DNA from: Clostridium thermobutyricum
GTDB lineage: Bacteria; Bacillota; Clostridia; Ch29
DNA: 64,000 nt
Assembly: GCA_016841565.1 (NCBI GenBank)
Contig: JAENYX010000012.1
Span: 619 to 64,618 of the forward strand
Reading direction: 5' to 3'
A program made the position numbers and the translations under genes. The stretch's first letter is position 1. Each line of letters starts with the position of its first letter. Shown here in pieces: positions 35,727 to 54,010 of this stretch. The notes under the pieces are model-generated. The model worked only from the letters and a program-made list of their open reading frames with translations. It was not told where the DNA came from and searched no databases.

Positions 35727-36284
35727 CTAATCATTCATATGTATCATTTCTGGAAAATTGGCTGTTATCTCCTTTACCAACTGACAATCTCCCGTATTCT
35801 TCATAACCGACAGCATCTCCATTATAAGAACAGGATTGGTATCAGTATTGATTTTGCCTGCTTTGAACAGCCGGTCACAGCACTGCGCTGCTCCCTGGCT
35901 GTCTCTGGTTCTGTTTTTGCAGACCAGAACTGCAGGAAGCAGTGTGTCCTCCATATCAGGCCTAAGCTCGATTATAGAATTAAGTTTTTTTAATGCCTTG
36001 TCGTATCTGGCCCTATGGTAATTTTCCTGGGCTTGTTTATACAGCCAGGCCGGCCTTTCTTTGGCCTTGCCAATCATCATTAAAGTTAAGTTTATTAAAA
36101 ACACGGCCAAACAAATGGGCAATATTATTGCAAGGGGCCCTCCGGTCCCGGCAACCCCAATAAATACTCCAAAAAAGCTCAGCCAAAGAATAATCAACTT
36201 TTGAGTGTATCCCCGGGGAATCAACTCTTCCGGCGGCAATACCGGCAGTATTGGGTTGTATCGTCCTTTTCGGGCTTTGCTCAT
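35727..36284 (-). CDS. Membrane protein with TPR-like C-terminal region
   Basis: Two TM helices followed by a helical repeat region. Start taken at MSKARKG, because the longer start falls inside repeat copy A. Confidence 0.4.
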   Translation of the reverse strand: MSKARKGRYNPILPVLPPEELIPRGYTQKLIILWLSFFGVFIGVAGTGGPLAIILPICLAVFLINLTLMMIGKAKERPAWLYKQAQENYHRARYDKALKKLNSIIELRPDMEDTLLPAVLVCKNRTRDSQGAAQCCDRLFKAGKINTDTNPVLIMEMLSVMKNTGDCQLVKEITANFPEMIHMND

Positions 36285-36292
36285 AATGCTGC

Positions 36293-36413
36293 CTCCATTA
36301 CCTGTCATTTAAGAGGGCGGAGCCCGAAGAATCTGACTTGAAAATGGACATAAGATCCTTCGCCTGGCTCAGGATGACACGTTAACAGGCGTAAAACCTT
36401 AAGCACGTTATAT
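36293..36413. repeat. ~120-bp repeat element, copy A (inverted relative to copy B at 43021..43139)
   Basis: The core CCTGTCATTTAAGAGGGCGGAGCCCGAAGAATCTGACTTGAAAATGGACATAAGATCCTTCGCCTGGCTCAGGATGACACGTTA..CTTAAGCACGTTATATA matches the reverse complement of 43021..43139. Only a handful of mismatches separate the copies. Confidence 0.85.
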
Positions 36414-36462
36414 ATTTACATAATATTATTATGGTAGTCACATTAAGTCTGTTGTATACCGG

Positions 36463-38211
36463 TTAACCATTTTTCCTAACTTTAGCCCAGCTGTCCTTCA
36501 ATGAAACAATCCGGTTGAATACCGGTTTGCCGTCCTTCCATCGACCGGTATCGGCGCAAAAGTATCCAAGCCTTATAAATTGATACCTGCAACCCGGCTT
36601 TGCCTTCCCAAGCTCCGGTTCCAGCATGCAGGAAACCAGCCTTTGCAGCGAATTCTTGTCCAGCCTCGATTGAAAATCAATACCTTCTTCGCCCTCCGGG
36701 TTTTCGTCAGGGAAAAGATGCTCATAAAGACGGACTTCCGCCTGGATGGCATGGTCTGCAGACACCCAGTGGAGCGTACCTTTGACCTTCCTCCCACTGT
36801 TGGGCCCTCCACTTTTTGAATCGGGATCGTAGGTACAGTGTATTTCGGTAACAGTTCCGGAAGCTTTATCCTTTACCACATCAACACATTTAATTATGTA
36901 AGCATTTTTCAAACGCACTTCTTTACCCGGAGTGAGCCTGAAAAACTTTGGAGGCGGTACCTCAAAAAAATCGTCCCGTTCAATATACAATTCCCGCGAA
37001 AAGGGCAGCTTCCTGGTTCCCAATTCCGGACTTTCGGGATTATTTTCCGTCTCCAGGTATTCTACTTTATCTTTTGGGTAATTATCTATCACAAGCTTGA
37101 CCGGGTTTAATACTGCCATAACCCGGGGCGATTTTGCTTTCAAGTCCTCACGAATACAGTGCTCCAGCAGCGCAATATCGACAGTGCTGTTGCTCTTGGC
37201 AACACCTATTCGCTCACAAAAATCCCGTAAGGCTTCGGGTGTATATCCGCGCCTTCTTAAGCCTGATATTGTAGGCATTCGCGGATCATCCCAACCGTCC
37301 ACATAACCTTCCTCTACCAGCTTTCTGAGCTTTCTTTTGCTCATAACTGTATTTGTCAGGTTAAGCCGGGCAAACTCTATCTGCTTGGGGTGCACTTCCG
37401 GGTCCACATTTTCTATGGTCCAGTCATACAGCGGACGGTGATCTTCAAACTCCAAAGTGCATATGGAATGGGTAATCCCTTCAATTGCATCCGAAAGCGG
37501 ATGGGCATAATCGTACATCGGATATATGCACCAGTCATCGCCCGTTCTATGGTGGGTGGTCCTCATTATTCTGTACAGCACCGGGTCCCTCATATTAAGA
37601 TTTGACGATGCCATGTCTATCTTGGCCCTCAATACCCGAGAACCGTCGGGAAACTCTCCCTTCCTCATTCTCATAAAGAGGTCCAGGTTTTCTTCCGCCG
37701 GTCGGTCCCGGTAAGGGCTGTTTTTACCTGGCTCTGTAAGTGTACCCCGGTATTCTCTTATTTCATCTGCACTCAAATCGCATACGTAGGCTTTTCCTAT
37801 TTTTATAAGCTTGACAGCATATTCAAACAGCTGCTCGAAATAATCGGAGGCGTAGTATTCCCTGTTGCCCCAGTCAAAACCCAGCCACTTTACGTCATCC
37901 TTGATCGAGTCAACATATTCTACTTCCTCTTTACTGGGATTGGTATCGTCAAACCTCAGGTTGCATAACCCTCCGTTTCTTGCCGCAATACCAAAATTCA
38001 GGCATATGGACTTTGCATGACCAATATGAAGGTAGCCGTTGGGCTCGGGGGGAAAACGGGTATGTACTCGCCCGTTATAAACGTTTGTTTCCAAGTCCTG
38101 GTTAATAATGGACTGGATAAAATTAGCCGGCTGATTTGTTGATTCCTGGACTTGGGTCTTATCCCCCTGGCAGGTGTTCAACTTGTCGTCTTCCCTGGAA
38201 TTTGCCACCAT
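36463..38211 (-). CDS. glnS: Glutamine--tRNA ligase
   Basis: HIGH (..YLHIGHAKS..) and VMSKR motifs, GlnRS-type N-terminus, 582 aa. Confidence 0.9.
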
Positions 38212-38344
38212 TTTTTTGAATTTCCTCCCCTATGGTTTAGTCTTAAATATGCACCCCTATGGGTATTCACTAAATCTATATTTAACAGCCATCCCAATGT
38301 ATCCCTTTAAATATAATATACATACATCAGGCCATTTTCAATAA

Positions 38345-39232
38345 TTATTCCCCAAATCTCATCAGATGGTTCTTTTCAAATGTCCATTCGGGGGTAACCA
38401 GCGTATCCCCGAAATCCACCCGATACCATGGACTTATAGATTTGTCAGCATTATTTTTTAAGATATGAATATCCTGGGCCGGCATGTAGCTCTGGGCCAA
38501 CATAAACACTTTTTCGCCGGTTCGACTGTTGACTGCCATATCTATTATGATAACACAATGTCCCGGGCTTCCCCCCTGGATAAACACATCTCCTATCTCC
38601 ATATCCGAAACCGCAGCTTGCTGAAGCTCCTTTGACAGTGAAAGGGTGCCTGCATAAGAGAACACCATATCAAGGTATTTTCTGAAGCTGTCGTAGTCTT
38701 CCGAATACCCGGCGCCGCCAACCCAACTTACATTATTGCCGTTTACAGAAATCCTGTTCCCCTGCATCCATTTTTCATACTGCGCATTAAAACCGTTTGT
38801 AAAATTGAAATGAATATTCCGGTACTGCTTCTGCTTATACAAATACTCAGCCCGCAGCCTCATTACCGCATCGGCACACTGCTGTAAATCCCTGTCTCCA
38901 ATTTCCATATCCACTACTGCAATGTGTACGTCTCTTGCTTTTTCCCGCCCGTTGTAATGCAAAACCTTTGAACCGTGAGGTTTAAGAGGTAAGTTTCTCA
39001 GATAATGGGCAAAGGAATTGGCGTCGACGTGGAGCCTTTCGAAGCCTTCCGGTACCATTATCCGCTCCACTACAGTGTTACCCTGGGGAGTTATCATCTG
39101 GCGCTGCACTGTTCCGGCACTGTTTTTATAACCGTTTTCCTCCGTCCGGGGCATACCGCTTCCGGAGTGGTCTGGCTGCTCTGTGCATGCCGTCAGCATA
39201 ATAGCAATTAACACAATAAATATTTTTTTCAA
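38345..39232 (-). CDS. Lipoprotein of unknown function (DUF4846-like, tentative)
   Basis: Start taken at TTG (39230-39232) with a GGAGG RBS 4 nt upstream, giving LKKIFIVLIAIMLTAC (lipobox LTAC). The ORF-track extension MEVDGY.. lacks an RBS. Confidence 0.45.
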   Translation of the reverse strand: MKKIFIVLIAIMLTACTEQPDHSGSGMPRTEENGYKNSAGTVQRQMITPQGNTVVERIMVPEGFERLHVDANSFAHYLRNLPLKPHGSKVLHYNGREKARDVHIAVVDMEIGDRDLQQCADAVMRLRAEYLYKQKQYRNIHFNFTNGFNAQYEKWMQGNRISVNGNNVSWVGGAGYSEDYDSFRKYLDMVFSYAGTLSLSKELQQAAVSDMEIGDVFIQGGSPGHCVIIIDMAVNSRTGEKVFMLAQSYMPAQDIHILKNNADKSISPWYRVDFGDTLVTPEWTFEKNHLMRFGE

Positions 39233-39312
39233 TTTGCCTCCCCTTTCCCCGAACGGGCAGTTAAGAAATACCGGATACCGGCTGCACCGGTATCCATCTA
39301 CTTCCAATATGT

Positions 39313-39615
39313 CTATACGTTATAGTCCAGTACCACGCGCGAATCTGTAATGTCGGTAACAAACCCTGCAACTTCTACATGAGCGGGGTGCTTCTGGTAT
39401 ACTTCCAGTGCGTCCAGGTCCCGGAATTCCGAGTATAAACCCACATCATACGCAGCACCGCTTTGGTTAACATTTATGCCTACCTCAATATGCAGTATCT
39501 CCGGTATCTTATCCTTTAACCCTTCAATCCGCTCCTTCATTAGCTCCAAGTTTTCCTGTTTATCCTTGCCGCTGGCAGAATCCTTAGCCTTCCAAAGCAC
39601 AATGTGTTTTACCAT
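39313..39615 (-). CDS. Dabb-family stress-responsive alpha/beta-barrel protein
   Basis: 100 aa with a ferredoxin-like fold signature (..HIVLWKAKD..). Ends in a weak terminator-like hairpin. Confidence 0.65.
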   Translation of the reverse strand: MVKHIVLWKAKDSASGKDKQENLELMKERIEGLKDKIPEILHIEVGINVNQSGAAYDVGLYSEFRDLDALEVYQKHPAHVEVAGFVTDITDSRVVLDYNV

Positions 39616-39650
39616 AGAAAATTCTCCTCCCTCTCCAACAACTGGTACTA

Positions 39651-39974
39651 TTATACTACATTTTTGCTTTTAATATGAGCCTTTTCATCATTTCCGGGGG
39701 AAAGCGGTATTCGCAATAGTTTCAGTTTCTCTTGTCTCGATAGCTGTTTTATACTATACTCTCTCTGCATTGCTTCCTTCTTTGTACCAAATGCTTCCGA
39801 ATGCCTCAATACCACCGGAAGCCTGGCCCGTGTGCATTTACCTCCCTTACCTTGGTTGTGCTGGGCCAGCCGCCTTTCAACATCGGTTGTCCACCCGGTA
39901 TACAGCGACCCGTCATTGCATTCCAGTATGTATACATAATACACCTTCCGGCACTCCTTTCCACTGTCCTTCAA
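39651..39974 (-). CDS. GIY-YIG nuclease family protein (UPF0213-like)
   Basis: ..[30 protein letters not shown].. GIY-YIG motif, about 100 aa. Confidence 0.7.
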
Positions 39975-40129
39975 ACGATGCAGGGGTTAAGAAGTTGAAA
40001 AGGAAGCAAAAGGACCTTCCCCTGCTTCCATTGACATCATATTGCACCAGTATTATTATTATATTGCACCTTTTTACATATTGTCCTTTTATAATATTAT
40101 ATCATACCGAAAATTGGAGGTAAATACAC

Positions 40130-40714
40130 ATGCCGAATTTTACAGCATTTTTATCCTATGTCCTAGTCACCACCTTCACCCCCGGCCCCAATAACATCAT
40201 GTCCATGTCAAACGCCAGCCGGTACGGTTTCAAAAAAAGCATCATGTTCAATGTGGGCGTCTTTATTGGCTTTTTTGTAATCATTTCCCTGTGCAGCATG
40301 TTCAGCATGGCGCTTTTTAACCTTATACCAACCATCAGGCCGTTTATGACCTATATCGGAGCCGGCTACATACTGTGGCTGGCATGGAAAACTTACAGCA
40401 GCAAACCCCATAGCACCGACAACAGCCATAATCGTACAAACACCTTTACGGCGGGCCTTCTCCTGCAGTTCGTAAACCCCAAGGTTATTCTTTACGGAAT
40501 TACGCTTGTTTCAACCTTCATAGTACCCTATTACAAGTCCCCGCCTGCGCTTACGGGCTTTGCCGTTTTACTGGCCTTCACCGCCTTTGTATCCACCTGC
40601 TGCTGGGCACTGCTGGGCTCGGTTTTCCAGATATTCCTGGCAAGGAACAACAGAGCAGTTAACGCCATTATGGCTTTGCTGCTTGTCTACTGTGCGGCTT
40701 CGCTGCTACTTTAA
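40130..40714 (+). CDS. LysE/RhtB family amino-acid exporter
   Basis: 194 aa, 6 TM helices, N-terminal ..TPGPNN.. LysE signature. One of only two plus-strand genes. Confidence 0.8.
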   Translation: MPNFTAFLSYVLVTTFTPGPNNIMSMSNASRYGFKKSIMFNVGVFIGFFVIISLCSMFSMALFNLIPTIRPFMTYIGAGYILWLAWKTYSSKPHSTDNSHNRTNTFTAGLLLQFVNPKVILYGITLVSTFIVPYYKSPPALTGFAVLLAFTAFVSTCCWALLGSVFQIFLARNNRAVNAIMALLLVYCAASLLL

Positions 40715-40725
40715 CTGGTTCACAC

Positions 40726-40758
40726 GGAACCAGTGGAAACCAGGGGGAAACCAGGGGG
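40726..40758. repeat. Short tandem repeat GAAACCAGGGGG x2, preceded by a partial copy
   Basis: GGAACCAGTG-GAAACCAGGGGG-AAACCAGGGGG directly 3' of the LysE stop, within a convergent intergenic region. Confidence 0.6.
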
Positions 40759-40912
40759 ACGGTTCTTGTGGTTATCTTATCTCAGCAAAACTTTACTTCC
40801 TGCCTCAAAACCTAATTTTCTTTGATTCTTTAAACCAAAATAGATTGTGCATTCGGTTATCAAGTCAAAGTACCGGCATCCCACATAACACTGCCCGGAT
40901 TCCCATTAATCT

Positions 40913-41572
40913 CTATAATGAAACATCCTGAAACCAGTAGCCGTCGTGGAAGTACTGCTCTTTAAGCTGGATATTAACCGGGAAAGAAAATGTAGGGCCG
41001 TCGATTACAACGGTATGAAATTCCCCTTCCTCTCCCGAAGCATCCACCCCTGCTTTTTCAATTTCCCTGATAATATCTTCATCCAAGATTTTTCCTAAAA
41101 ACCGTTTATCCAGCACCCCGTCCTTGACGGCTATTATTACAGCCTTGAAGCCCTCATTTACAAACTCATCCAATAATTCTCTGCGTTTTTCCTTCCAAAG
41201 AGGATGAAAGGGTTTTATACCGGCATAACAACATACCCTTTCCACCCACTGCCGGTGCTGGTCAATATCTATATCGCCAAAAACCCCGGCCTCTATTCCC
41301 TCAGCCTTAAGACCGTAAAGAGCGGATATAAATTCCCTTTCGTAATCATCCCACGTTGCAGAACGGGTAATTACCGGAAGCCCCAAAGCCTGGGCCTGCT
41401 TCCCTATTAACGAAATGTGGAGGGCATGGGACCGTGACCTTTCTCCTCCCTCTGAAAACATAGTAAAAAGGAAGTGCGGACTGCCCCCTTCCCGTATTGC
41501 CCGGTATAATGCCAGGCATGAATCCTTCCCGCCGCTCCAGGAGCAAAAAAAACTGGAACTATTTATGGTCAT
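40913..41572 (-). CDS. PP-loop ATP pyrophosphatase of the Dph6/MJ0570 (DUF71) family
   Basis: SGGKDS PP-loop near the N-terminus, 219 aa. Confidence 0.7.
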   Translation of the reverse strand: MTINSSSFFCSWSGGKDSCLALYRAIREGGSPHFLFTMFSEGGERSRSHALHISLIGKQAQALGLPVITRSATWDDYEREFISALYGLKAEGIEAGVFGDIDIDQHRQWVERVCCYAGIKPFHPLWKEKRRELLDEFVNEGFKAVIIAVKDGVLDKRFLGKILDEDIIREIEKAGVDASGEEGEFHTVVIDGPTFSFPVNIQLKEQYFHDGYWFQDVSL

Positions 41573-41665
41573 AAAGCCTTTACCCCTTATATGCTAAATT
41601 TTCTTATGGCACTTCTGCCTGTCTGTTGTGTATTATCATTGTTTCTGTAATAAGGCCGGCCTTTC

Positions 41666-41794
41666 CTATTTTTTGCCTTCCAATTCCTTAACCTTCTTTT
41701 CCAGGGCTTCCACCCTGTCTTTCAGGCTGTAATCTTTGTTCAGGGCAACAATGTGAAAAACTACTGCAATTATTAGAATAATAAACCCCATCAT
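41666..41794 (-). CDS. 43-aa small membrane/coiled-coil protein (unannotated by the >=60-aa ORF track)
   Basis: MMGFIILIIAVVFHIVALNKDYSLKDRVEALEKKVKELEGKK. One TM helix plus a charged heptad-like tail. A GGCCGGCC hairpin follows the stop. Confidence 0.3.
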   Translation of the reverse strand: MMGFIILIIAVVFHIVALNKDYSLKDRVEALEKKVKELEGKK

Positions 41795-41845
41795 GCTTAC
41801 ATCCTTTCTTCCGGCAATGCTTATAATACACCTGTTATTTTGCCG

Positions 41846-42505
41846 TTATAGATTTTGCTTGAACACACCCAGCCAAGCAGCAAAGGCCAAAATGGCAATT
41901 GCTGCTGCAAATTCACTTATGCCCCTCAACCGGCTGGCCTTTGTACTCTCATTTACTCTCTCTTTCATATCCAGAACAATTTCTTCGAAATAGTATACAC
42001 TGCCAAACCTTATAAAGACCAGCTCGAAGTTTTTGCCGTTTCCCGCCCTCTGATTCATCCTGACAGAGGCATCATACTGATCCAGGAATATCTCGGTATC
42101 CATAGCATGGGGGCTTTCTTCCTTTTTTCTGTATTCCAATCCATACTTTTCCAACGTCTGAAACAGTATTGTTTCAAGGTCGGCTTTGGAAATATTGTGA
42201 ACTGTATACTTTTTACCCGTGGAAAAATTTCTGTAAAAGGCGAATATAACCAATAATAACAGTATTCCCAGTAATTTTACGGCAAGTTTTTCATCACTAT
42301 TCGTACCAAGCTCCCATATTCCAATAAAGTCATACAACAACACTGCTAAACCCGCACCTGCCGAAAAAAAGTTCAAGAGCTTGGGCTCGTGGTAAAAGTT
42401 TTTTTCCCTTCGCCTTTTGATGCCAAGGTATATACACTGTATTAGGTAGATAATGCCCATTACACGATATATAGCAAGTTTTCCGCTGTCCATTGATACA
42501 CTCAC
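41846..42505 (-). CDS. Membrane protein of unknown function
   Basis: 219 aa, 3-4 TM helices N-terminally, then a soluble C-terminal region ending in another TM helix. Confidence 0.4.
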   Translation of the reverse strand: MSVSMDSGKLAIYRVMGIIYLIQCIYLGIKRRREKNFYHEPKLLNFFSAGAGLAVLLYDFIGIWELGTNSDEKLAVKLLGILLLLVIFAFYRNFSTGKKYTVHNISKADLETILFQTLEKYGLEYRKKEESPHAMDTEIFLDQYDASVRMNQRAGNGKNFELVFIRFGSVYYFEEIVLDMKERVNESTKASRLRGISEFAAAIAILAFAAWLGVFKQNL

Positions 42506-42573
42506 TTTCTTAAATTTAGTCGTTCATATTATATATGTTTTGACGCAAATTCTCCGGTTTTTGTTGCCTGTGT

Positions 42574-42930
42574 TTAACCTCCAATCAGCTTTTCCTTTGC
42601 CTCAGATACCGAATTAACAAAAAATATTCTACCACTCTTATTAATCTCATTAATAAAAACTTTTTTCGCGATATATTTAGAAAAATCACCTATAACGGCA
42701 AGCCGAACGTCATAATCTGCAAATTTATGTATTATCTCTTCTGCCATTCCCCTATCCATATCAAAAATATCAGGACTGATGTTCTTTTCCCTAACAATTA
42801 TTTTCTTTGCACCCTGATAATAGCATTCAGACATCATATCCAAAGCATCCTGGACATTATTAATAATTATGCCGCTTGCCACCACTTCTGCTATAAAGGT
42901 CCCCTTTGTGCTTATCAAATTGATTCTCAT
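42574..42930 (-). CDS. Small conserved hypothetical protein (DUF4180-like, tentative)
   Basis: 118 aa, soluble. Repeat copy B sits in its upstream region. Confidence 0.4.
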   Translation of the reverse strand: MRINLISTKGTFIAEVVASGIIINNVQDALDMMSECYYQGAKKIIVREKNISPDIFDMDRGMAEEIIHKFADYDVRLAVIGDFSKYIAKKVFINEINKSGRIFFVNSVSEAKEKLIGG

Positions 42931-43020
42931 GCTTTACCCCCTCAATTTTGGAGTAATGCCGTGTTTATGGCCCGGCTGTCTGAGTTTACGACATTTTTCA
43001 AGTACTTCTGCGAGTACTAT

Positions 43021-43139
43021 ATATAACGTGCTTAAGACTTTACATCTCCTAACGTGACATCCTGAGCCAAGCGAAGGATCTTATGTCCATCTTCAAGTCA
43101 GATTCTTCGGGCTCCGCCCTCTTAAATGACAGGTAGAGG
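43021..43139. repeat. ~120-bp repeat element, copy B (inverted relative to copy A)
   Basis: Reverse complement matches 36293..36413. Overlaps the 3' end of the GDPD pseudogene. Confidence 0.85.
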
Positions 43140-43990
43140 AATGTAATACTATTAATGCGTTATATATAGGTAAAGAGGTGTAGTGCGTATTCTTAACCGG
43201 CTTTCCATTCGCACCTTTACCGTCATGAGCTGTTTGAATTAGTTTTTTATAGATATCACAGGCTGCCCGATTTGACATATTTTTTCAGCCAGGCCAATTC
43301 CCCTCCCCTGCTGTCAGGATAAAGAGTGAATTTGCATTTTTCATCCTTTCCACAAAGCGGTGCGGCCAGCCCCGCAACAAGCGGGCATATTTTTCAGGCA
43401 TCCGTGCCATGTTTCCAAGATATTGAGCCAGGATCTCTCCCTCCTGAGGATTATTGCTCTTAATGTGAATTAAAAATGAGCGGTCGGGGAAATGTTCCAA
43501 CACCTCATCCAATGAGGGCATCAGACACAAACCCTTGCCGCGGAATGGATATGTTTTCCCGTTATCTGCGGTATAGCCATATCCTATGTCAAATTCCTTT
43601 AATTCTCCATCCTGTAATCCCTTACACTGCCTGCACCATTGATCCGGTATTCAAGGTTTGAATCATTGAAAACAGCAAATTGCCCGTCCTTGGTCAGCCG
43701 TATATCAAATTCAACCATGTCGACTCCTGCCTGAAAAGCTGCTTCCATTGATGGTATGGTGTTTTACAGATAGGGATGCTCGGGTTGATATATACGTCTG
43801 GCCGTATTGGTCCCGCCCGTTATACCCTCCATGGGAAAGGTCTGGGCCAACCCCCTTTAGGCAAGAAGAAAAGGTTTTCCATCATACTTTTCAATAAACA
43901 ATGAGCTATTGCTCAAGTATATCAAGGCAAACAGAAGAGCCATGAGCCATATTATTCTTCTGTTTATTGAGTTTTTAGACATATTGGCTT
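43100..43990 (-). pseudogene. Glycerophosphodiester phosphodiesterase (GDPD) pseudogene, multiply frameshifted
   Basis: Minus-strand pieces in three frames. First a signal peptide MSKNSINRRIIWLMALLFALIYLS.., followed by a stop. Then ..MEAAFQAGVDMVEFDIRLTKDGQFAVFNDSNL.. (GDPD E-x-D / HD-like core). Then ..MPSLDEVLEHFPDRSFLIHIKS.. and a C-terminal ..LIQTAHDGKG... No single frame spans the region. Confidence 0.6.
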
Positions 43991-53390: not shown

Positions 53391-53430
53391 TAATTAAAAA
53401 GCTGATAGCGTATACTATCAGCAAGTAGTT
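53391..53430 (-). terminator. Intrinsic terminator at the 3' end of the structured RNA
   Basis: Minus strand GCTGATAG-tatacg-CTATCAGC followed by TTTTTAATTATTTTTT. Confidence 0.6.
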
Positions 53431-54010
53431 TCAGGTGGCGGCATAGTGAGTAAATTTTGCGGCTTAGGTCCAGCAGGCTTTCCCAGATGAATACCAACCT
53501 GTCGCCAGGTCAGCGGTTTCCCTTTAAATTCATCTCTATCGTGTTGCCAACGATAGGGCTGGATTACCACTTAGTCCGCACTTTAATCCCCAATATGCCT
53601 CATGCGAACAGTCTAGGAGTTTTCCTCGACATATGTCTCGCTCTATAGCCTCTTTTGCAAAATGGGTTTCGAAAGCATTGGCGTCCTCCGAAGGGCCCTT
53701 CGAATTATGCCTGACAATCATCTACCCATTTCACTCAAGGCAGGCTACGCTGCAGGTTCTATCTGCAGGTTATTACCCGGTCTTTTATACCGGGTCTCCG
53801 CAGAGGGAGGGTCAACGCCTGCATGCCATTGCAGATCGCCCCCGCCTCCTTACTCCCTGAACCAACCCCCAACTGGGCGTCAGAAGCCGATCCAAAGAAC
53901 TTCATCGATGTGCCTTTTGACGGATTTTTAGCCCCGCCTTCAAGAGCGAAACGTCTGACTAGAATACTGCACCACCAACTATGTGCATATTATAACATGA
54001 GTACATGCAG
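53396..54010 (-). ncRNA. ole: Candidate OLE (ornate, large, extremophilic) RNA
   Basis: About 600 nt with no convincing ORF and GC-enriched relative to the flanks. Many short helices with GNRA-type loops. Ends in a strong terminator. Sits precisely between the ispA-side gene and an OapA-like membrane gene upstream of dxs, which is the known OLE context. Confidence 0.55.

Follow-up and report, generated by a model that had tools for sequence, protein, structure and literature searches.

A probable dispersed nested-palindrome repeat, present as two inverted copies around glnS in Clostridium thermobutyricum

A stretch of 64,000 nt of Clostridium thermobutyricum DNA (assembly GCA_016841565.1, contig JAENYX010000012.1, positions 619 to 64,618 of the forward strand; this whole stretch is called the window below) was analysed around a pair of inverted copies of a nested-palindrome repeat. 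The copies enclose glnS and the genes for DUF4846, Dabb, GIY-YIG, LysE and 215-aa membrane proteins. The left copy was placed antisense to its two neighbours, between the glnS stop codon (36463) and the start of a 185-aa gene, and the right copy 87 nt upstream of the start of the DUF4180 gene (42930), in sense orientation. In a preliminary description of this DNA both copies had been called intergenic, upstream of a minus-strand gene and opposite in orientation relative to that gene, and the gene positions bear this out. The homology of the left copy ends at about 36293, 8 nt off the ATG (36284) of the 185-aa gene; the GGAGG ribosome-binding site (RBS) of this gene (36292-36296) adjoins that end.

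A repeat search over the whole window returned a single long inverted repeat, 36294-36415 (+) against 43019-43140 (-), with arms of 122 nt, a complementarity of 91% and 6603 nt separating the arms. The next-longest repeats in the 64 kb measured 33-34 nt with 71-79% identity, and the 122-nt pair is therefore far beyond chance. Pairwise alignment of the two copies gave a 43-nt identical core and 11 differences, which were concentrated in the spacer between units A and B (listed below), in the loop of unit B and in the stretch TTA[AC]AG[GC]GTAAA[AC]C. Both copies were also found in locus L066 (GCA_016841135.1, contig JAENZS010000010.1), an independent assembly of the same species with 99.87% identity to the window across 21.7 kb; the repeat is thus no assembly artefact. 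The near-identical inverted pair of ∼120 bp first noticed was therefore confirmed (122 nt, 91% complementary). The two window copies are mutually closest (91%), and any other copy found was at most 82% identical.

The extents had to be revised in part. The pair itself stood; the right copy proved longer than first given (43017-43169) and includes an outer-left arm (CTATATATAACGCATTAATAGTATTACATTCC), and the earlier extents had omitted that the left copy is without this arm and ends at about 36293. The parts were assigned as follows.

43017..43169, minus strand: right copy, a complete composite, 153 nt in length (in order: outer-left arm, unit A, spacer, unit B, outer-right arm)
43132..43169, minus strand: outer-left arm of the right copy, CTATATATAACGCATTAATAGTATTACATTCCTCTACC; no counterpart in the left copy, conserved in most family members
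43100..43131, minus strand: unit A of the right copy, TGTCATTTAAGAGGGCGGAGCCCGAAGAATCT, with TGTC head, stem, GGGC-GGA-GCCC mini-hairpin and GAAGAATC stem
43055..43081, minus strand: unit B of the right copy, AGATCCTTCGCTTGGCTCAGGATGTCA, an inverted unit (reverse complement TGACATCCTGAGCCAAGCGAAGGATCT)
43017..43054, minus strand: outer-right arm of the right copy, CGTTAGGAGATGTAAAGTCTTAAGCACGTTATATATAG, ending CACGTTATATATAG
36293..36416, plus strand: left copy, 5′-truncated composite (unit A, spacer, unit B, outer-right arm) without outer-left arm
36303..36334, plus strand: unit A of the left copy, with the same sequence as its right-copy equivalent
36353..36379, plus strand: unit B of the left copy, AGATCCTTCGCCTGGCTCAGGATGACA
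36380..36415, plus strand: outer-right arm of the left copy, CGTTAACAGGCGTAAAACCTTAAGCACGTTATATAT

Units A and B of the right copy are separated by an 18-nt spacer. When aligned to five loci from other genomes (L037, L035, L039, L023 and L003), the right copy had its ends in common with them (CTATATATAACG...CGTTATATATAG), and in a DNA fold of the complete right copy these two ends were paired. Against the family profile (nhmmer) the right copy scored 166 bits, over profile positions 4-174, and the left copy 135 bits.

Unit B contains the stretch CTGGCTCAGGATGA (36365-36378 and 43056-43069), with GATCC before it. This stretch resembles the 5′ end of bacterial 16S rRNA and the site of primer 27F (AGAGTTTGATCMTGGCTCAG); the resemblance is probably coincidental, and the stretch could be a source of off-target priming.

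The two arms are very probably separate copies of a dispersed non-coding repeat built as a nested palindrome, and not two ends of one structure. The exact unit-A 19-mer was found in 65 stretches of species-representative genomes, against a chance expectation of ∼4 by our own estimate; the matches were mostly multi-copy in single metagenome-assembled genomes of Lachnospiraceae and Gastranaerophilales, and others came from Omnitrophota, bacteria of the candidate phyla radiation (CPR) and further phyla. The outer arms were also present in five of the 65 loci, the same five with which the right copy had been aligned, which therefore hold the same composite element and derive from Clostridiales bacterium AS10tlH2TH_240 and uncultured Clostridium. 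Metagenome contigs scanned with a pattern derived from the outer-right arm gave 42 stretches, all from anaerobic-digester or fermentation samples. A profile search (nhmmer) yielded 55 elements with both arms, 137-266 nt long and often 2-4 a contig; A-type units number 1-3 in these, and B-type units, whole or partial, 1-4. The non-redundant copies in other Clostridia genomes and anaerobic-digester metagenomes numbered 42 and were intergenic without exception (42/42). With respect to co-directional neighbours, 13 of these lay antisense and 10 sense; a further 10 lay between divergent and two between convergent genes. The genes flanking different copies were unrelated, and the distance from the end of the element to an RBS and ATG is 10-30 nt in many family members. 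A single occurrence in the genome, or a place in the untranslated regions of paralogous genes, would have told against a mobile or dispersed element; what was found is many copies with unrelated flanking genes. Among the four explanations offered at the outset, that of a dispersed element of the kind of MITEs (miniature inverted-repeat transposable elements) or repetitive extragenic palindromes (REPs) is the one that held, with family copies elsewhere; composite insertion, inversion and structured RNA did not.

Throughout the family, AT-rich outer arms of ∼30-38 nt (CTATATATAACG...CGTTATATATAG), which are imperfect inverted repeats of each other, enclose an inverted pair of ∼30-nt units. The terminal CTATATATAACG and CGTTATATATAG are perfect 12-mers, and the outer arms match at ∼21/28 positions. 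Versions without units were also found (L087, ∼57 nt; L076, ∼62 nt), and L082 keeps an ATGACA remnant only; the simpler outer palindrome thus has the unit pair at its apex. Scanning viral contigs with two exact patterns (the unit 19-mer and the outer-arm pattern) gave 0 matches, and a blastn search of the right copy against plasmids gave no match. No transposase open reading frame (ORF) was present between the outer-arm pairs of any locus examined, and the search for a parent insertion sequence sharing these ends was negative. Locus L105 (5966-6975; also L106) was considered as a transposase-carrying parent and rejected, being two partial copies around an unrelated 125-aa gene. A literature search by element sequence found no earlier description. 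The feature is an ordinary dispersed repeat, as yet unnamed, of REP-like and MITE-like kinds with units akin to Ssn-related motifs (SRMs), and no new system.

The units have the general form (C/T)GTC-AT(T/C)CT-GA-[inner]-GA-AG(A/G)AT-C, which can also be spelled TGTCAT(T/C)CTGA-[mini-hairpin]-GAAG(A/G)ATC, unit B being an inverted unit A. In each, the (C/T)GTC head is followed by a stem of 5 bp (ATYCT/AGRAT), which leads through an internal loop of tandem GA/GA to a variable mini-hairpin closed by C-G. The variable stem pair was T/A in 119, C/G in 95 and non-Watson-Crick in four of 218 distinct units; this covariation indicates that pairing is conserved within a unit, not between A and B. A third stem variant, ATTGC/GCAAT, was found in other phyla. 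The inner segments are diverse (GGGC-GGA-GCCC, GC-GAA-GC, GCCC-GTA-GGGC, TCCCGCC-GAA-GGCGGGA). An uninterrupted inner stem with a loop of at most 5 nt was formed by 47/64 distinct segments (shuffles: mean 6.4, maximum 16); the closing pair was C-G in 42/47, the triloops were GNA in 20/30 and the tetraloops GNNA in 11/16, only two of the latter being GNRA. The consensus unit, folded as DNA, gave a stem of 5 bp and then one of 4 bp, with a 2x2 internal loop between them and a triloop at the end. GCGNAGC/GCGNNAGC is the rule of a very stable DNA mini-hairpin (PMC13037366), and the unit loops obey this rule and not the GNRA rule of RNA. The C-GNA-G and C-GNNA-G loop rules provide independent, sequence-level support for recognition as single-stranded DNA.

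Units of similar build are known as CGTC-tagged REPs, which have a CGTC/TGTC head, a stem starting A-T then T-A and a short tail, occur mostly as inverted dimers, are without a dedicated transposase and include the Neisseria dRS3 repeat (PMC3733652). The NTS (CGTCATTCCCGCGMAVGCGGGAATCYRG) is a longer dRS3, and NTS and SRMs flank the genes for SsnA, a single-domain GIY-YIG nuclease of ∼94 aa (cd10448) that cuts its motif solely as single-stranded DNA, on one strand only, and modulates transformation in N. meningitidis (PMC11893778). A GIY-YIG gene of ∼95 aa bracketed by unit A and one or more units B was found at 7/7 loci read in other genomes (Omnitrophota L009; Saccharibacteria L030; Clostridia L116; Elusimicrobiales L117, L120 and L121; Dehalococcoidia L122). 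One of the unit-flanked proteins (P0121) matched a 94-aa N. gonorrhoeae ORF with E=3e-19, and six canonical NTS copies lay within 400 nt of this ORF, which is the ssnA arrangement of PMC11893778. The protein family comprises 3586 homologues at E≤1e-10; NCBIfam gave no informative family for these proteins. By their homology to the gonococcal ORF the unit-flanked GIY-YIG proteins are predicted to be Ssn-type. The units, which do not fit the published SRM pattern, are accordingly placed as a variant class of CGTC/TGTC-tagged REP and SRM with an interrupted stem.

Two records that carry the ssnA locus with NTS (NZ_CP119140.1 and NZ_CP119142.1, N. gonorrhoeae, 2.17 Mb) are filed as plasmids and are evidently chromosomes. 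Several predicted GIY-YIG proteins exceed ∼97 aa (P0137, P0146, P0151, P0161, P0229 and P0239); their extra N- or C-terminal residues are read-through into the flanking units (for example ...RHSEG..RRI... and ...RDSS..LRMT) and are annotation artefacts of the repeats.

With SRM/NTS the present units share ∼30-nt directional hairpins with an HGTC head, a stem starting AT and an ...AATC tail, multi-copy intergenic occurrence and, in other genomes, the bracketing of an ssnA-like ∼95-aa GIY-YIG gene on both sides. They differ in the tandem GA/GA loop that interrupts the stem, in the variable mini-hairpin that ends it and in the larger palindrome in which they are embedded here; moreover, the window itself is without an Ssn gene, its GIY-YIG gene being YhbQ-type. 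With the CGTC-REP superfamily (dRS3, Rickettsia RPE-4/6; PMC3733652) they share the unpaired CGTC/TGTC head, the A-T/T-A first pairs, the short tail and the intergenic occurrence, mostly as inverted dimers. The published CGTC-REPs have a continuous stem of 8-9 bp, a 4-5-nt loop and a CCA tail, whereas here 5 bp, GA/GA and 2-7 bp follow one another, the loops are mostly of 3-4 nt and the tail is CT or CC. The hosts differ as well, being mainly Proteobacteria, Chlorobi, Bacteroidetes, Spirochaetes and Thermotogae for CGTC-REPs (PMC3733652), and Clostridia, Lachnospiraceae, Gastranaerophilales, Omnitrophota and CPR bacteria for the present units.

Two inverted palindromic units with a spacer, a non-autonomous nature, a nuclease gene flanked by units and a presumed recognition as single-strand hairpin are features in common with REPINs and their REP-associated tyrosine transposases (RAYTs; PMC3116915); unlike these, the units have no GTAG head, the enzyme is of GIY-YIG (Ssn) type and not an HUH tyrosine transposase, and no RAYT gene was seen. 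The composite resembles bacterial MITEs, such as the Neisseria Correia element and the minisatellite-containing MITE of P. gingivalis (PMC4596501), in its length (137-266 nt), its non-coding nature, its terminal inverted repeats with TA-rich ends, its dispersed intergenic occurrence and its internal module of variable copy number. It differs from MITEs in the SRM-type hairpins of its interior and in that no insertion sequence with matching ends turned up as a parent. The alternation of hairpin units with conserved linkers in variable numbers recalls bacterial interspersed mosaic elements (BIMEs) of E. coli and neisserial intergenic mosaic elements (NIMEs; PMC2817692, PMC11893778), with the difference that the hairpin units lie inside conserved outer arms here and the dRS3 units lie outside in NIMEs.

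The enclosed genes were compared with six relative loci (L068-L073; GlnS 83-85% identical), in which the gene order and strand of the window are kept: spo0A, a variable region, the 215-aa membrane protein, LysE (opposite strand), GIY-YIG, Dabb (missing in L072 and L073), DUF4846 and glnS, followed downstream of glnS by an optional small gene and then a steA-like gene. None of the six loci holds a copy of the repeat element. The same block thus exists in repeat-free relatives, and it is therefore neither an insertion or composite transposon nor an inversion; the core from glnS to LysE and the 215-aa gene is ancestral, resident and uninverted. The proposal that the block interrupts synteny, as an old composite insertion would, was accordingly not upheld. 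glnS and its neighbours are ordinary resident genes, and the inverted repeat marks no island, switch or RNA gene. Specific to the lineage of the window are the 414-aa gene, the DUF4180 gene, the Dph6-like gene and the sequence earlier called a GDPD remnant.

In L070 and L071 a counterpart of the 185-aa gene, 44% identical to it, directly follows glnS. When the spacer behind glnS was compared with these two loci, homology was found at the palindrome CATAATAATATTATG and at the RBS and ATG, and the stretch between, in the window only, is the element. Its absence from the homologous spacer indicates that the left copy is a gain, the outer arm of which was later lost up to the RBS. Judged from these comparisons, this lineage appears to have gained both window copies, in spacers that adjoin genes specific to it. 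The AT-rich palindrome CATAATAATATTATG downstream of glnS (36419-36433; ∼11790-11805 in L070 and L071) abuts the end of the left copy and is conserved at only 84% GlnS identity, while the remaining spacer is unalignable. At the other end of the block, the spacer behind spo0A in L070 (661-5746; GCA_900198705.1) holds a DDE transposase and a DpnII-type restriction-modification cluster, and the spo0A-proximal junction is an insertion hot spot in this group. The Spo0A call of L070 is a 184-aa C-terminal part only.

The GIY-YIG gene of the block (39651-39941) was considered as a source of the cognate nuclease and rejected. Its product scored 67 bits to E. coli YhbQ versus 34 bits to the Ssn-like P0200 and is YhbQ/UPF0213-type; the gene is syntenic in the repeat-free relatives, and its position between the two copies is therefore a coincidence.

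Two of the rival explanations treat the arms as a pair. That they are the ends of a composite transposon or of an old horizontally acquired island with glnS and its neighbours has next to no probability: the block is indeed bracketed by the repeats, and lineage-specific genes stand at both junctions (the 414-aa gene at one; DUF4180 and the putative GDPD remnant at the other), but these genes lie outside or at the edge of the block and not throughout it, the core occupies the same place and strand in the repeat-free relatives, no transposase is encoded in the repeats, and the left copy is without one terminal arm. That the 6.6-kb block is inverted by recombination between the repeats, in a programmed manner or frequently, as a switch, is highly improbable. 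The repeats are inverted, of 122 nt and 91% identical, with the 43-nt identical core; all loci, however, are in one orientation relative to spo0A and steA (window, L066 and the six relatives), the opposite-strand glnS and neighbours expected from flipping were never seen, and neither the block nor its immediate surroundings have an invertase or recombinase gene. The suggestion of inversion substrates was dropped on these grounds. The repeats, moreover, belong to a family of at least 40 unrelated loci and did not therefore evolve as a pair. Two further observations had favoured inversion. Between the window and L066 there are 28 differences in 21,750 positions, two of which (36343 and 36364) fall in the left copy, where about 0.16 would be expected in 122 nt by our own estimate; L066 has the base of the right copy at both. 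This resembles sequence exchange between the copies and suggests gene conversion between them or cross-talk of reads in assembly. A Logan contig (L067; ERR14940443, 6717 nt) corresponds to window 36350-43044 and breaks inside both repeats; this is normal behaviour of a short-read assembler at repeats and no evidence of inversion. Such elements fragment short-read assemblies, as in L067.

The other rivals assign a function to the single copy. Each could be a cis-regulatory RNA, a small RNA or a 15-aa peptide (MKMDIRSFAWLRMTR) acting on the adjacent gene, given that both copies lie just upstream of a gene start, as do the many members ending 10-30 nt from RBS and ATG, and that four of the differences between the copies are synonymous, conservative or stop-to-stop in the small ORF. 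We regard this as very unlikely. Rfam gave nothing at the gathering threshold over the window for the repeats and nothing relevant over 36200-36500 at E≤10; the two strands of each copy, folded as RNA, gave z-scores of -0.4 to -1.7, not significantly better than shuffles; and a promoter and terminator scan of 35.5-44 kb linked no site to the repeats, the hairpins of which are not followed by a T-run. The window copies are oppositely oriented to their downstream genes, orientation in the family is random, the loops are GNA/GNNA (DNA) and not GNRA (RNA), and Ssn enzymes act on single-stranded DNA, not RNA (PMC11893778). The peptide is the usual reading of unit B (RSFA.LRMT), which also occurs as a read-through tail on unrelated ORFs; the small ORF MKMDIRSFAWLRMT/SR, a unit-B frame and the sole ORF of the element, was rejected as a generic unit-B translation in random orientation to genes with no Shine-Dalgarno sequence before it. 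The units thus yield spurious peptide tails, such as ...SFASLRMT, on predicted proteins. Together, the DNA-type loops, the random orientation and the lack of an Rfam match or folding signal indicate a DNA-level element, and the repeated structured RNA considered at the outset is unlikely. A mosaic of BIME/NIME kind, domesticated by the host and not selfish, which marks DNA for an Ssn-type nuclease, so as to restrict single-stranded DNA from outside or to shape recombination, or which stabilises mRNA, is improbable too. It would agree with the modulation of natural transformation by Neisseria NTS and SsnA, with the variable unit numbers and conserved linkers reminiscent of BIMEs and NIMEs, and with the preference of the copies for spacers beside gene starts; against it stand the recent, lineage-specific gain of both copies beside variable DNA and the want of any Ssn gene in the window or on the contigs that bear composites.

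Several results also weigh against the preferred reading, that of two independent copies of a dispersed repeat with SRM-like units. The window holds two copies only, and the stem of its unit A is weakened (TCATTTAAGAG in place of TCATTCTGAG). The published SRM pattern, HGTCWYN(0-2)YYVSBRHN(0-5)WNVSBRGN(0-2)RNCYNB, found the NTS control and matched neither the window units nor the consensus units nor anything else in the whole window. The flanked GIY-YIG proteins would belong to cd10448 by way of the gonococcal ssnA-like ORF, and neither a transposase nor an Ssn gene was found in the window or in ∼350 kb of composite-bearing contigs. Gain and mobility rest on presence and absence against diverged relatives, with no clean filled-versus-empty pair. 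The flanks of the copies hold no duplication of more than 2 bp, and the TA-rich ends prevent the reading of a target-site duplication: the ends C-TA-TATA...TATA-TA-G are compatible with duplication of TA at CTAG-like sites, inseparable from the element's own ends. That the published SRM pattern misses a large hairpin class found across phyla suggests that Ssn/SRM-type systems are under-counted in Clostridia, Lachnospiraceae, Gastranaerophilales, Omnitrophota and CPR bacteria.

As two independent copies of a dispersed repeat, the arms would act or spread at the DNA level, as single-strand hairpin or cruciform on which a nuclease or transposase supplied in trans would act. The units, as single-strand hairpins, would be the target of an Ssn-type enzyme whose gene lies elsewhere in the genome or was once present, and the composite would spread by an activity acting in trans, possibly with duplication of TA. 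After its gain the left copy lost the outer-left arm up to the neighbouring RBS. The two copies would be functionally independent, with no joint function; as they are inverted and 91% identical, gene conversion might occasionally pass sequence from one to the other.

A more specific and rather unlikely proposal is that the units are an uncatalogued SRM class, with GA/GA-interrupted stem and DNA mini-hairpin, propagated by an Ssn-type nuclease for single-stranded DNA, and that the composite is an unrelated palindromic MITE. If so, Ssn would be the missing dedicated enzyme of CGTC-type REPs, the staggered GCTCAGGATGACA head duplications (2-4 times) would be the footprints of its cleavage and repair, and the clostridial composite would be a MITE that has taken up a unit pair at its apex and spreads it along with itself.

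Partial duplications of the unit head and a few adjoining bases, staggered and in tandem (for example GCTCAGGATGACA or GCTCGCAATGAC, 2-6 times, with 5-12-nt spacers), were observed both beside Ssn-like genes and inside composite elements: in L019 (4200-4400), in L120 and L121 downstream of 1791, in L007 and L025, and in composites such as L088, L100 and L102. They may have been left by cleavage and repair at the head of the hairpin. Elsewhere in the window a full-length OLE RNA gene was located at 53419-53991 on the minus strand (RF01071, 495.5 bits, E=2.3e-142, model positions 1-616).

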